From the NCBI GenBank assembly GCA_002269645.1, contig NIVC01001654.1, positions 186,001 through 250,000 of the forward strand: 64,000 nt of DNA. Reading direction: 5' to 3'. Below the pieces are notes generated by a model. The model made no database searches and was not told the DNA's origin. It worked only from the letters and a program-made list of their open reading frames with translations. Made by a program: the position numbers and the translations under genes. Each line of letters opens with the position of its first letter. Position 1 is the first letter of the stretch. Source of the stretch: Macrostomum lignano. Lineage: Eukaryota. Shown here piece after piece: positions 53,918 to 64,000 of this stretch.

Positions 53918-54188
53918 AGTAGTATAGAAAAAGACGCTTCTAGACCCAGAGCACTTTTTTAATGACCGTTTTAAGGGTCTAGAGGGGGGACACGGGGGGT
54001 AAATAAAAAAACACATCTAAACACCATTAATACATCTAATCACCCATAATCACCCCTAACAATAAAAATCACTTCCCAACACTTCCAAACACTCCCCAAC
54101 ACCCCCCTCGCGTCCCCCCTCTTAAGACCTTAAAAACGGCCATTAAAATAAGGTCTGATCTAGAAGCGTCTTTTTCTATACTACTACT
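53918..54188. repeat. Terminal fold-back: ~80-bp imperfect inverted repeat with (AGT)n and (ACT)n ends
   Basis: agtagtatagaaaaagacgcttctaga at 53918 vs tctagaagcgtctttttctatactactact ending at 54188. Confidence 0.9.
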
Positions 54189-54599
54189 CTATAACCCCTT
54201 GCCCGCGCCGCAGGCGCGAAGGGTCACAAAAGAGTTTAAACTGAGTCATGGTAATAGTAACACTCAACAAAAAATTACTCTCATAGCCACTATTGGCTAG
54301 CTTGCAAAATCTTGCCGTAGCAGGAATTGAACGCCCACTCAGCCATCCAACTCTATAAAAACCACAGCCATCAACCCAGTTCTAGCTCATCTCTCAGGAA
54401 GAAGAAGACAGGCTCCGCGCGTCACAAGTAAAATGGGGTGCCCACCATCAATGAATAAGTTTTTAACAAATCGTCCAGAAAAATTCTGGACGTCCAGAAA
54501 AAAATGACTCAATGCAGTATATACACCATCTTGGGTTGAAAAATATTCTTTTGTGTGTTCTCGTATTCTTTTTTTCTGTTACTAAAAATAGAACAAAAA

Positions 54600-54997
54600 A
54601 TGACACACGTTACACATGTGCAAAATATAAATGAGTATCAGGTAGGAGATCCAATTGAATACCGAGGTGAGGGACTTTTTGATTTGGTTGGAACAGCAGC
54701 AAATTTTGTTAAAGACAATATGGGGCTTATAGGGCAAGCTGGCTCTGCAGCAGGCTCTAAAACAAATGCTGTAAAAGGAGGAATTGAAGCAGCTAGAGCG
54801 GCAGAAGAACTAAAGAAATTGAGAGATTTTAACGACACCCTCTCACAAATAAATGCAATAAAAGATTTAAAGCTGGCACAAGCCGCACAACCAACAGAAA
54901 CCCCACGAAAAGCGCACCAATAAGTAATAAAGATATTCAGGATTTTAATAAAATGTTAAATACTATTAAAGGTGGAAAAGGATTAAAGAAATTTTAA
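54600..54997 (+). CDS. Putative Polinton minor core protein (one 1-nt frameshift near 54912)
   Basis: Gly/Ala-rich YRGEGLFDLVGTAANFV...; the repaired frame ends IKGGKGLKKF, which contains an adenain-like IxGG site. Confidence 0.55.
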
Positions 54998-55007
54998 CAA
55001 TATAAAA

Positions 55008-56003
55008 ATGGGCTCAGTTAATGATGATGAAAACCGGTTATATTTTATAGGAGAAATTGTAGATACCTTAAATCTTGATGATAATAAGCAAACCCACACA
55101 ATGTTAAAAAGATTGGATCGATTAGGTAAAAAGTTTGACTACGACATCGATACATTTAAACTCGCAGCAAAATATGCACAAGAAGGAAGGCCAATATCTT
55201 TTAAGAATCGCGGCAGAAATTATAGGTTGACAGACTCCGATGTGAAATTTTTAATGGAGACTCACACTAAAAAGGACGGCGGATTACTACCCATTCTACC
55301 GCTTCTTTTAGGACTTGGCGCAGCTGGAGCAGTCGGTTTAGCCGGAAAAAGAATTCATGATAATGTAAAACAGCTAGGAGAGTTAAGAGCGAAACAGGGG
55401 GGAATCTTGCCCCTTGCAGCTTTGCTCCCAATAATTTTTGCAGGAATTGGAGCAGCTGGAGGAGTTGCTGGCGGAGCAGCTGGAATTGCAAAAGCAGTAA
55501 ATGACAAAAAAGCTGCGGACGAAAAAGCTAAAAGAGAGGCCGAATTTCAAAGACAGCAAATAACGCAGGACGCACAATTTAAACAAAAACTTATCGATAC
55601 AATTAATAGTAGTTCAGCAACAGCTGAGCAAAAAAGAAATGCAGAAGCTAGGTTATCAGCTGGAAAAGGTTTACTCTTGCAAGGAACAAATCACGGGAAT
55701 GGTTTGGTACTAAAAGGAACAACCCAAGGAAGTGGAGTTGTCGCAGATAAACTACATGAATTTGGTCAAACTTTAGAAAAAACGGGTGAGAAAGCTAAAG
55801 GATTTTTTGACAATATTGGATCCAATTTTAGACCAGCTGTTCAGAAAATTTTTAATAAATTAGGAAAAGATTTTAATATCATTGAAAAACACGACGGAAG
55901 CGGATTATATCTCGAAATGAGACCAAAAGCAGGTTCAGGAATTTTCTTAAATTCAAACGTTATGGGCAATGGATTACTGTTACCAAAAGCAGATCTCGAA
56001 TAG
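55008..56003 (+). CDS. Adenovirus pX-like (adintovirus 'gasderminX'-type) core / membrane-active protein, 331 aa
   Basis: GGILPLAALLPIIFAGIGAAGGVAGGAAGIAKAVNDKKAA motif typical of Polinton pX-like proteins, a second GGLLPILPLLLG segment, and five C-terminal G[KNS]G[LI]hL repeats plus a degenerate GSGVV. Confidence 0.7.
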   Translation: MGSVNDDENRLYFIGEIVDTLNLDDNKQTHTMLKRLDRLGKKFDYDIDTFKLAAKYAQEGRPISFKNRGRNYRLTDSDVKFLMETHTKKDGGLLPILPLLLGLGAAGAVGLAGKRIHDNVKQLGELRAKQGGILPLAALLPIIFAGIGAAGGVAGGAAGIAKAVNDKKAADEKAKREAEFQRQQITQDAQFKQKLIDTINSSSATAEQKRNAEARLSAGKGLLLQGTNHGNGLVLKGTTQGSGVVADKLHEFGQTLEKTGEKAKGFFDNIGSNFRPAVQKIFNKLGKDFNIIEKHDGSGLYLEMRPKAGSGIFLNSNVMGNGLLLPKADLE

Positions 56004-61290: not shown

Positions 61291-61914
61291 CCGCGGGCTT
61301 TGTGCCCCAGTAGCAATAGTTTCAGGTTCGTAAATGCCTAATGTTTCTATCGGTGGAGCTTTGGGTTTATCGAGTCTCAACTCTTTTAATTCCATATCGG
61401 TAAAAGTTTCAACATCTAAAATTCTATTTCTATCTTTTAAATATTTTTCATATAATTCAACCGCGGTTGATAATTCATGAATCGTTATCTCTCCGTCATC
61501 CAATATTTTTTGCACATATAAATATAATTGATTTTTATATTGCTTGGCAACATCTCTTAATGATTTATATTTTTCCTTTCTTTTTTTAAGATATAATTTA
61601 ATTGCTAAAAGTATTGATAAGTTCCTGATCAATTCAAAACCTGATATTGAGCCAATTGAAATACCTAAAAATAATTGAGATAAATTAAGAGTTGGAATAG
61701 ATTGTAAAATACCTAAAACGATTACACATAACATTGATAAGCTTCCAAATCCAATATTGAAAAAATCCATATTTCTTATATGGTTTGAAACTCTTCTTAC
61801 TTTTTTAGCATATAAATCATAATCATAGTTAATACGATCAACATTACTTAACATCTGACCTTTACGTTGGTTGAACCGGTCGCGTTCCCATTTATCTGCT
61901 TCAGATACCGACAT
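61258..61914 (-). CDS. Viral two-TM membrane protein (218 aa)
   Basis: Two hydrophobic segments, then a basic helix and a KILDDGEITIHE motif; this layout is common in Polinton accessory ORFs. Confidence 0.65.
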   Translation of the reverse strand: MSVSEADKWERDRFNQRKGQMLSNVDRINYDYDLYAKKVRRVSNHIRNMDFFNIGFGSLSMLCVIVLGILQSIPTLNLSQLFLGISIGSISGFELIRNLSILLAIKLYLKKRKEKYKSLRDVAKQYKNQLYLYVQKILDDGEITIHELSTAVELYEKYLKDRNRILDVETFTDMELKELRLDKPKAPPIETLGIYEPETIATGAQSPRSGSAVELQVV

Positions 61915-62226
61915 TCTCGTCTATTTTTAATAGCACCAAAATGAATTCCCCGCGCTCTTTGGGATTTGTCCCGAGCTCAATAGGTATTGTATTGGAGTGA
62001 TTCTTTCTTTTTTCTCCCATTTAAATCCTATTTTCCAAAACTCTTGAAGTATAATATGATTTTTTAATAACTTAATTAATTCTTGAAGCTTCTTATTATC
62101 CTGAACATTTACAGTACTAAATAAAAATTTGGTATGAGATTTGAATGTTTTTATATTTGATTCTTGTTTAGGAATAGGAATAATAACATTATTTTGCCGC
62201 ATCGATGGAGTTCTACTAAAAGCCAT
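61901..62226 (-). CDS. Viral hypothetical protein (one 1-nt frameshift)
   Basis: TATAAAATG start; the repaired frame ends GEFILVLLKIDENVGI*. Confidence 0.5.
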
Positions 62227-62256
62227 TTTATATAAAATATTTTATATATAAATATT

Positions 62257-64000
62257 TTATATTTGAGTAGGAGGTTTTTCCAAATAAGCAGTAGAGGGAA
62301 AAACATAACCAAACGACGTACTACCACATACAACTGCACCACGAATAAAATGTGCAGCATCCGCTCCACCAGTTCGAGCACCAAAACCCATAAGGGTTCC
62401 AGATTTATCTAAAGTTCCCCAAGTTCCACTATCATATGTGAAAACGTTCTGTCCAATGAGGGTAAAAGAATCACCAGCAACATTGTATGACTGTAATCGG
62501 TACCAAACCCTTTGATTTAAAATATTAACTTCAAATAAATGCCAATCACCGTTATCAATATTAGCATAGGCTACAGTTTGATCCGCATCACTACTAACAT
62601 CGTTACGAACCGTAGATCCGTCTGATTTTTTATTACTCCAAACAACTCCAAACCTATCAGTCCACTCACTAGCAAACACTATCAGCCCGGCGTCGGTTGA
62701 TAATCCAGTTCCAAATTCCGATGTTGGACGTTCGTGACATATGCATAAAACCAAACCGCATCTGCACCATCTCCTGTAGAATTAGCAACTCGGAAAAAGA
62801 AAGACGCAGATATATTTTGAAAATGTGTGAAATTGAATTGTAAAGCACCACTTACTCCAGAAGTTTCACGAGTAATTCTAGCGCCGTTTTGATAATCGAT
62901 ATAAGAAGCATCGCTAATTAAAGAACCGACTGGATATATATCTCCGGCGGTTGTTGGATTTTGATATCCAGACCAATTGCAAATTACTGGTTCGAACAAG
63001 GCCGCATCAATAGCAGGTATTCCATCCAATTTATTTTTATCGCTTCCAGACATTCTACCATTTGATGTTGGAGTAGCTAGCTGATCTACGTACGCTCGCG
63101 GAACTGCAGAAAGTATTTGAGTTGGCCAATTAAGATCTTGAATTTCAACACGGTGTTCAAATAATTGTATTTGACGAACCTCGATAGGTTGTGTACCGGT
63201 ACCACCAGTTGGGAAGAATACGCTATAATATTTCCAAAAATTAGTCGTTAAATTAGATAGAGCAAATGATGTTGCTTGAACTGGTGATCCCGACGTAGTT
63301 AATGTCGTCCATGAATCGGTAGCAACATTTTTTGCGCGAACCGACCACCCCGAGGGTATCTCAATTGTTTCACTGCCTGTAATTCTTAATTCAAATATTC
63401 TTCTATTATAACCTAAAAATTCAAATTGAATTTCCATATTGGTTGTGGTTCCGGTATTTGGTGACCATTGTGTCGCAAGGCTTCCATCTCCAACTCGAAA
63501 AGCTGTGTTGCCATTTTCAGATGCTGTAAGAACAACATCAGGATTTGAAGTATTTGATGTAAGCGGCGTGGTAAAAATATCGGCGTCGGTTGCATTAGCT
63601 CGCTCGTTTACTTGGCCTAGAGTTATCGAGTCTGCGTTCTCTGTTCCAAATAATAAATTTGTTAATTTAAAATTATTCATATTAATATTCCACTACGAGT
63701 GGCAACTTGATTATCGACATAGTTCTTATCAACCACTGAATCACTAGTTGTAATTGAAACATTTATAATTCGGTTGTTGCTCATATCTAGGTTTCCGGTT
63801 GCGGTGGTTTGAACATAACGTGAATCAGAATCAGTTCGAGAATAAGAATCAGTTACATCTCTTTTTAAATTTAATCCATTATCAACTTCGGTTTTGGTAT
63901 AAGAATCGGCTACGTTCCGTTTCAAATTTAATGAATTATCAACTTCGGTTTTGGTATAAGAATCAGTTATATCTCTTTTAAATTTAATGAATTATCAACC
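62257..64000 (-). CDS. Viral fibre / receptor-binding protein with 19-aa shaft repeats, discoidin-like and L-type lectin-like domains (5' end outside the window; two 1-nt frameshifts)
   Basis: YTKTEVDNxLNLKR x3 (57-bp repeat), GNLDMSNNRIINV...KNYVD, GDGSLATQW...WSVRA..WTTL (F5/8C-like), ATPTSNGRMSGSDKNKLDGI, F.F...GDGADAVWF (ConA/legume lectin-like). Confidence 0.7.

Follow-up and report, generated by a model that had tools for sequence, protein, structure and literature searches.

A multi-copy Maverick/Polinton family of Macrostomum lignano whose gene breaks are very likely consensus errors

Animal Mavericks (Polintons), as described in the accessible part of PMC8097293, have (AGT)2 termini, terminal inverted repeats (TIRs), a 6-bp target-site duplication (TSD), a protein-primed polymerase B (pPolB), an rve integrase, an ATPase, a protease and a major capsid protein, and up to 38 intact copies were reported there in one fish. 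Orthopolintovirales-related insertions have also been reported in flatworms, according to the available text of 10.1101/2025.04.19.649669. In protists, the genes of endogenous Polinton-like viruses (PLVs) and virophages suffer false fragmentation through false consensus, frameshifts and read mixing (PMC10120064). Here we describe an insertion in Macrostomum lignano (assembly GCA_002269645.1; 764 Mb in 5,269 contigs were searched), found in a stretch of 64,000 nucleotides, positions 186001-250000 of contig NIVC01001654.1 (C1654), which we call the window. It shares the termini and the gene set of the animal elements (TIRs, 6-bp TSD, pPolB, rve, ATPase, protease and double-jelly-roll capsid), carries a fibre gene besides, and is a Maverick/Polinton. 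An initial annotation, made from the letters of the window alone, had called it a Polinton-like virus, a label that in the strict sense does not hold because protease, pPolB and rve are all present. According to the portion of PMC7805220 available, strict PLVs typically lack a maturation protease and seldom carry pPolB or RVE, with exceptions noted.

We consider it highly probable that the window holds the left part of a Maverick insertion, one of at least 34 near-identical insertions, that its frameshifts are very likely consensus errors, and that the family likely kept working genes while spreading recently. Both the element type and the artefact type are already known, and neither will surprise a specialist.

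The insertion and its siblings

The left boundary of the Maverick is at window position 53918, where the sequence begins AGTAGT, and the left copy of the duplication, ACCGTC, stands just before it at 53912..53917 (plus strand). The left TIR occupies 308 bp with an (AGT)2 end at 53918..54225 (plus strand), and right ends match these 308 bp only. A search for the right terminus followed by ACCGTC gave a single, exact match genome-wide, on contig C4099, where the duplication predicted by the initial annotation is thus present. Past this terminus, 1,034 bp of the C4099 flank match window 35448-36481 at 100% identity, and the flank continues the empty site at window 36480-36000 on the minus strand. 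The left flank, 53394-53917, matches window 36476-36999 (minus strand) at 99.8% over 524 bp with no gaps. The shared TSD, the identical 1,034-bp flank and a host gene of which each contig has one half, described below, indicate that C1654 and C4099 hold the same insertion. C1654 runs 4,789 bp beyond the window and terminates within the Maverick, the two contigs overlap by 4.47 kb, and the complete insertion is ~17.9 kb, of which the window holds the left 10 kb.

The element is repeated throughout the assembly. An exact 28-mer from the TIR occurs at least 50 times in the genome and 0 times in a control. Terminus matches were scored genome-wide for 40 of 297 candidates. In the end counts, with one right-end stretch without a full TIR omitted, 70 of the 71 ends examined aligned, most starting AGTAGT (39 left, 28 right and 3 untyped). 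The left flanks are distinct in 34 of 38 cases, which gives at least 34 insertions. Left and right 6-mers pair 28 times, against 0.26 expected by chance, with 17 distinct 6-mers; pairing at 5 nt was found once and at 7 nt not at all. For 18 siblings, identity to the window copy over the main match is 96-99%. Near-identical copies, distinct flanks and host target arms that are still 99.8-100% identical agree with the initial suggestion that the element is recent, and recent mobility of the family is highly probable. At TIR position 10, a polymorphism agrees between the two ends in 15 of 16 other TSD-matched pairs and in the window pair (inner sites, 9-14 of 16), which fits end-copying during protein-primed replication. 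A similarity search of other genomes found no look-alike windows.

Single-base gaps and their origin

Compared with most siblings, the window copy is 1 base shorter at 13 places. In these counts, gaps within 6 nt of a site were scored among the siblings covering it, and sites with fewer than 8 covering copies were omitted from sibling variant counts. The longer form is carried by 25 of 27 siblings near 54900; in the polymerase gene (polB), by 25/26 at 57993, 25/25 at 58091, 24/25 at 58447, 24/25 at 58875, 22/25 at 59224 and 22/25 at 59790; in the small open reading frames (ORFs) behind it, by 23/24 at 60642 and at 60933 and by 15/24 at 62234; and in the fibre gene, by 23/24 at 62739, 17/18 at 63689 and 9/13 at 63975. 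A possible 14th gap near 60149 is uncertain (21/25 siblings within 6 nt, of which 12 at a single position); at 60451 the window copy also lacks 3 bp, in frame, relative to 21/24 siblings. Nowhere in the main sibling alignment is the window copy longer than half its siblings; a separate alignment gave one extra base near 54072 (15/18) and part of a polymorphic insert near 57337. Substitutions against all or all-but-one sibling number only 4, with the last 40 bases excluded.

The initial annotation had listed 11 single-base breaks, nearly always in runs. The breaks themselves are real features of the assembled sequence, but sibling comparison brings the count to 13, and the missing base lies in a run at only 3 of the 13 sites, against 53% expected (p=0.05). 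A homopolymer-run mechanism for the window copy was rejected on this count. The repaired polymerase of 1,238 aa proposed earlier is too short, with a sixth polB break near 59790 overlooked. Because of this break the full polymerase is placed at ~1,330 aa, and the 98-aa frame at 59780-60076 is likely its C-terminus. The single open polB among 28 spanning stretches has 1,332 codons from stop to stop.

The distribution of gaps follows the assembly. In 11 siblings with a contig end inside the element, private 1-bp deletions reach 6.4/kb at <0.5 kb from the end and fall steadily to 0.2/kb at 6-10 kb. The rate ratio between <1 kb and >=4 kb from a contig end is 20 for deletions (p=1e-27) and 1.6 for substitutions (p=0.17), the latter having no significant trend with this distance. 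Along C1654 there is 1 gap in the first 3.9 kb of the element, then ~2/kb, and 9 in the last kb. Moreover, C1654 and C4099 show 23 and 13 single-base gaps against each other over their overlap. On C4099 the capsid gene reads as a single frame of 493 codons, while on C1654 it is fragmented; C4099 in turn is broken in the ATPase, penton and protease regions. Private variants in 27 siblings comprise 163 1-bp deletions, 38 insertions and 166 substitutions.

The coding signal points the same way. Six genes, with 20-30 stretches each, were analysed for stop codons and for the ratio of nonsynonymous to synonymous polymorphism (pN/pS), leaving out any codon that lay up to 6 nt from a gap. Private stop codons numbered only 2; in polB, private deletions came to 39 across the gene, whereas its five analysed pieces contained a single private stop codon. 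Purifying selection acts on the shared variants, whose pN/pS is 0.01-0.26 (core 0.06, polB 0.14, ORF61920 0.01, capsid 0.05, integrase 0.07 and ORF223 0.26). In short-read contigs from 4 runs the longer form appears at at least 8 of the 13 gap sites, among sites listed, and at 59790 it takes all the depth in 4/4 runs.

Assembly error is well supported by the contig-end gradient, by contigs of the same site being broken differently, and by the near-absence of nonsense codons, and we hold with strong confidence that the gaps are mostly assembly (consensus) artefacts. Of the long-read polishing errors proposed initially, the assembly error stands and the homopolymer mechanism does not; and the low-coverage or polymorphic insertion proposed with them is better described as a multi-copy repeat near a contig end. 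In such a repeat, only reads anchored in a unique flank would place a copy correctly, and support would thin inside the 18-kb repeat; contigs would then break within it, gaps accumulate, and reads of sibling copies mix into the consensus.

That the window copy is fully intact is a narrower claim, to which we give moderate probability, and several observations weigh against it or against an artefact origin of the gaps. Short-read contigs show the family majority and contain no reads tied to the locus. The near-private substitutions at 55199 and 56160 have no supporting depth in 4/4 runs; those samples may lack the insertion, or variants present in a single copy may have been dropped. The longer form is missing from part of the depth at 54900 and 60642 and, at the exact place, from one run each at 57993 and 59224. 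Textbook long-read errors are run-biased, unlike the gaps of the window copy: private deletions of siblings fall in runs in 110 of 163 cases, against the 3 of 13 given above. Contigs with the same flank differ by 0-42 substitutions, mostly at family-polymorphic sites (e.g. 50/56), so that the assembled copies are chimeras in which a real lesion could go unseen. Few errors are expected as near to the anchored flank as ~1 kb, yet the gap near 54900 is found at that distance. Finally, pN/pS of shared variants reflects the past of the family, not its present activity.

If the gaps were real post-insertion mutations, of a dead copy under strong 1-bp deletion bias or of copies made by an error-prone polymerase, then the lack of run bias in the window copy, the scarcity of open frames (1 of 28 spanning stretches for polB and 3 of 24 for the capsid gene) and the fact that no locus-anchored reads were seen would be easily understood. 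Mutation cannot track contig ends, however, nor break contigs of the same site at different places, and the adjoining host arms are gap-free over 524 and 1,034 bp. Decaying DNA usually has an excess of substitutions, which the 13 gaps against 4 near-private substitutions invert. We therefore regard real mutation as improbable. Misjoining of a free or contaminating virus to host DNA is less credible still and hardly needs to be entertained. The Maverick part does have a GC content of 27-39%, against 42-63% across the first 36 kb of the window, and many contigs terminate inside the element; yet the TSD and the empty-site continuation match on both sides, there are 34 distinct left flanks, and at least 73% of the words of the element are present in 20 public runs of this organism, drawn from 8 studies. 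The sole contig starting at a terminus (C2768) is 142 kb, not a free linear copy, and none was found elsewhere among the candidates. With two matching junctions the misjoined reading is refuted.

A mixture of the two, in which the gaps are mostly artefact and at least one inactivating lesion is true, deserves more weight, although we consider it the lesser possibility. Such a copy would depend on, or have been left behind by, a few master copies. This fits the gap near 54900, which lies close to the anchored flank and is shared by one sibling in one alignment, and it fits a private pN/pS above the shared one (0.22 against 0.05 in capsid, 0.51 against 0.07 in integrase). The left TIR and the right TIR on C4099 differ at 4 of 308 positions, and a chimeric consensus can conceal lesions. 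Against it stand the rarity of private stop codons, only 2 in the six genes, and the youth of the insertion, which is younger than a host element whose arms stay 99.8-100% identical. At the level of the family, the mixed case is compatible with consensus error as the best explanation.

Gene content, modular variation and host sequence

The first ORF of the window half is small, lies at 54600..54998 (plus strand), has no family match and contains one break near 54900. It is followed by an unbroken ORF of 331 aa with protein-X-like stretches at 55008..56003 (plus strand; Adeno_PX E=0.01, below cut-off; shared pN/pS 0.06), likely a virion core protein. The pPolB gene, with an endonuclease VII (HNH-type) domain, spans 56087..60076 (plus strand); PF02945 matches at E=8e-7, PF03175 at E=0.002 on one piece, below cut-off, and polymerase motifs are visible in the broken pieces. 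Among 22 homologues of 1,151-1,478 aa, PF02945 is found in 8 and PF03175 in 3. Inserts of ~30 bp that preserve the frame are present or absent in polB at window 57333-57367 and 56943: the one near 57337, GC-rich and hairpin-like by eye, is missing in 9/26 siblings, and an extra one near 56943 occurs in 2/26. Small ORFs with no family match lie on both strands at 60121..61290 (breaks near 60642, 60933 and possibly 60149). An unbroken 220-aa ORF with a hydrophobic middle (61258..61920, minus strand) has shared pN/pS of 0.01, and a small ORF at 61927..62241 (minus strand) breaks near 62234. The fibre-like gene runs from 62257 past the window end at 64000 (minus strand), with a shaft of 19-aa repeats, an F5/8-type domain and a variable tip, and with breaks near 62739, 63689 and 63975. 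It gave PHROG tail-fibre matches at E ~0.001 and protein-atlas leads to PF00754 at 0.81-0.83, under the 0.9 threshold; PF00754 itself scored E=0.11 in this fibre and E=2e-12 in a second fibre class. Matches to SseC, GIY-YIG, NMT and YlmH in the window, and to Phage_TTP_1 and Corona_NS1 in the C4099 half, were below cut-off and judged to be chance.

Capsid, ATPase, protease and integrase genes, which the initial annotation proposed to seek, were all found beyond the window. On the C4099 half, the rve integrase matches PF00665 (E=9e-8, at cut-off) and has a PLA2-like N-terminus. This fusion was set aside as a novelty, PF00665 and PF08398 occurring together in ~82 among 120 homologues listed (counted by eye). 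A packaging ATPase fragment has a Walker A motif (Pox_A32 E=0.003, below cut-off). The adenain-type cysteine protease had no match in Pfam or PDB sequence searches, and an atlas score of 0.96 links it to clusters with PF00770 on 13-14% of members. A structure model of the capsid protein, of low confidence (pLDDT 51), matches Sputnik, mavirus and iridovirus capsids at E ~1e-11 with TM scores of 0.25-0.29, and the predicted fold is of the double-jelly-roll type; the protein has only 3 unnamed homologues at 41-50% identity. Between protease and ATPase, a frame of ~270 codons with no Pfam or PHROG match is a candidate penton. A group I intron splits the PLA2-like part of the integrase gene at L041:2264-2597 of C4099 (minus strand; RF00028, 60.9 bits, cut-off 50), and it was found with 302-333 nt in 14/14 stretches with both motif halves; as the junction is placed, the assembled intron ends in A rather than the usual G. 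Beside the integrase, a 194-aa ORF at L041:2694-3278 (C4099, minus strand) resembles Eco47II restriction endonuclease (E=0.003, below cut-off) and is present in 3 of 21 stretches that contain the integrase. The three stretches of the insertion have no GGNCC at all, against 10.7, 5.8 and 9.8 expected, and the host part of the window is likewise depleted in it (52 vs 110 expected).

A nested inverted copy of the terminus lies within the TIR region at 53918..54185 (no strand assigned), with 27-bp perfect arms and ~82 bp at 85%, so that a second, inverted terminus sits 268 bp inside the TIR. Between TIR and first ORF there are two left-end types, with either a 345-bp segment (window 54226-54570; 19 ends) or an unrelated one of 152 bp (20 ends). 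The fibre gene also comes in two classes, that of window 62260-63760 and that of L023:8111-9645, with different F5/8-type domains; 12 of 30 tip-covering stretches belong to the second class, ~80% identical at the tip and unmatched further up. Intermediates of 88-97% occur in copies otherwise 96-99% identical, and the sequences of classes and intermediates suggest module exchange between copies. Two end-to-end spans exceed the unit size, C110:517805-541006 (~23 kb), which contains the fibre region twice, and C4439:3914-43952 (~40 kb); internal duplication, tandem copies or misassembly are possible.

The target of the Maverick was itself a host element of the foldback type. Part of its right arm is at 53394..53917 (99.8% to window 36476-36999, minus), and its left arm at 35448..36999 shows the empty target site (100% to the C4099 flank over the 1,034 bp of 35448-36481). 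This element is multi-copy, with arms of ~1.55 kb, a satellite-filled interior, an apparent 4-bp duplication GGAT and no transposase seen in it. The flank beside the Maverick is thus repeated (245 candidates), and contig depth is no copy number, so that the comparison of depth with flanks is uninformative. An ankyrin/Mab-21 gene is divided by this host element: C4099 carries the N-terminal half and the window the C-terminal one. A cluster of ankyrin-repeat and Mab-21 (cGLR-like) genes lies at window 4-1992, 15621-18812 and 31004-35432 (minus strand). The second of these, of ~411 and 495 codons with one intron between them, is taken to be cGLR gene B of the initial annotation; it reads through with no frameshift, as had been stated there. 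This unbroken gene is weak as a control alone, at >45 kb from the contig end.

Proposed cycle and comparison with known systems

By analogy with known Mavericks and adenoviruses, a copy would leave the chromosome, and the protein-primed polymerase would replicate its linear DNA from the TIRs. The ATPase would package this DNA into a double-jelly-roll capsid, which the adenain-type protease would mature, the glycan-binding fibre would attach the particle to cells, and the PLA2-rve protein would integrate the DNA with a 6-bp duplication. Selection on capsid genes suggests particle-borne spread in the recent past, and the same argument was made for fish Mavericks in the available part of PMC8097293. 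It is a bolder proposal, and on balance an unlikely one, that most of the 30-plus insertions are intact and that the family now cycles as a true virus, exchanging ends and two glycan-binding fibre tips and carrying a self-splicing integrase intron. If so, untreated animals should hold free linear genomes and particles. Maverick particles were unobserved as of PMC8097293, in its accessible part, and titles and abstract openings of the literature, closed journals lying outside this coverage, gave no later report of animal Maverick particles. Whether particles exist may well be asked in this host, where young insertions number in the dozens and the capsid, protease and fibre genes are under constraint.

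A census of the assembly based on ORFs would call the family dead, with polB open in 1 of 28 stretches. Thus, assemblies broken at repeats can greatly understate the number of intact copies, and distance to contig ends offers a cheap diagnostic for false gene breakage.

Compared with animal Mavericks as covered in the accessible part of PMC8097293, the element likewise shows purifying selection on virion genes, and PZ/PW genes were not identified in it. Intact vertebrate Mavericks are intronless according to that part, whereas here a group I intron splits the PLA2-like domain of the integrase. With adintoviruses (PMC8502044) the element shares adenain, PolB, rve, FtsK-type ATPase and hexon, with a candidate penton, as well as PLA2-like and protein-X-like domains; adintoviruses, however, fuse PLA2 to pX (PLA2X), and here PLA2 is fused to integrase. 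Their Alpha and Beta classes are told apart by OTU-PolB and PLA2X versus GasderminX/Cupiennin accessory genes (PMC8502044), and the markers found here are a weak PF03175, the PLA2-integrase fusion and, in an ORF of its own, a weak Adeno_PX. The pPolB2 Polintons of nematodes and oomycetes likewise have an HNH-type (endonuclease VII) domain within the polymerase, and the available text of PMC10748475 treats this domain as specific to them; the likeness here is by domain content only.

The available portion of PMC12220804 describes lectin fibres and discoidin-flanked fibres in protist PLVs. The false decay of a multi-copy element is the same as in the fragmented protist PLVs and virophages of PMC10120064; the present case differs in its animal host and in that the artefact was measured as a function of distance to contig ends. 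Differently from animal Mavericks, this element combines a fibre gene in two classes with a nested inverted terminus.

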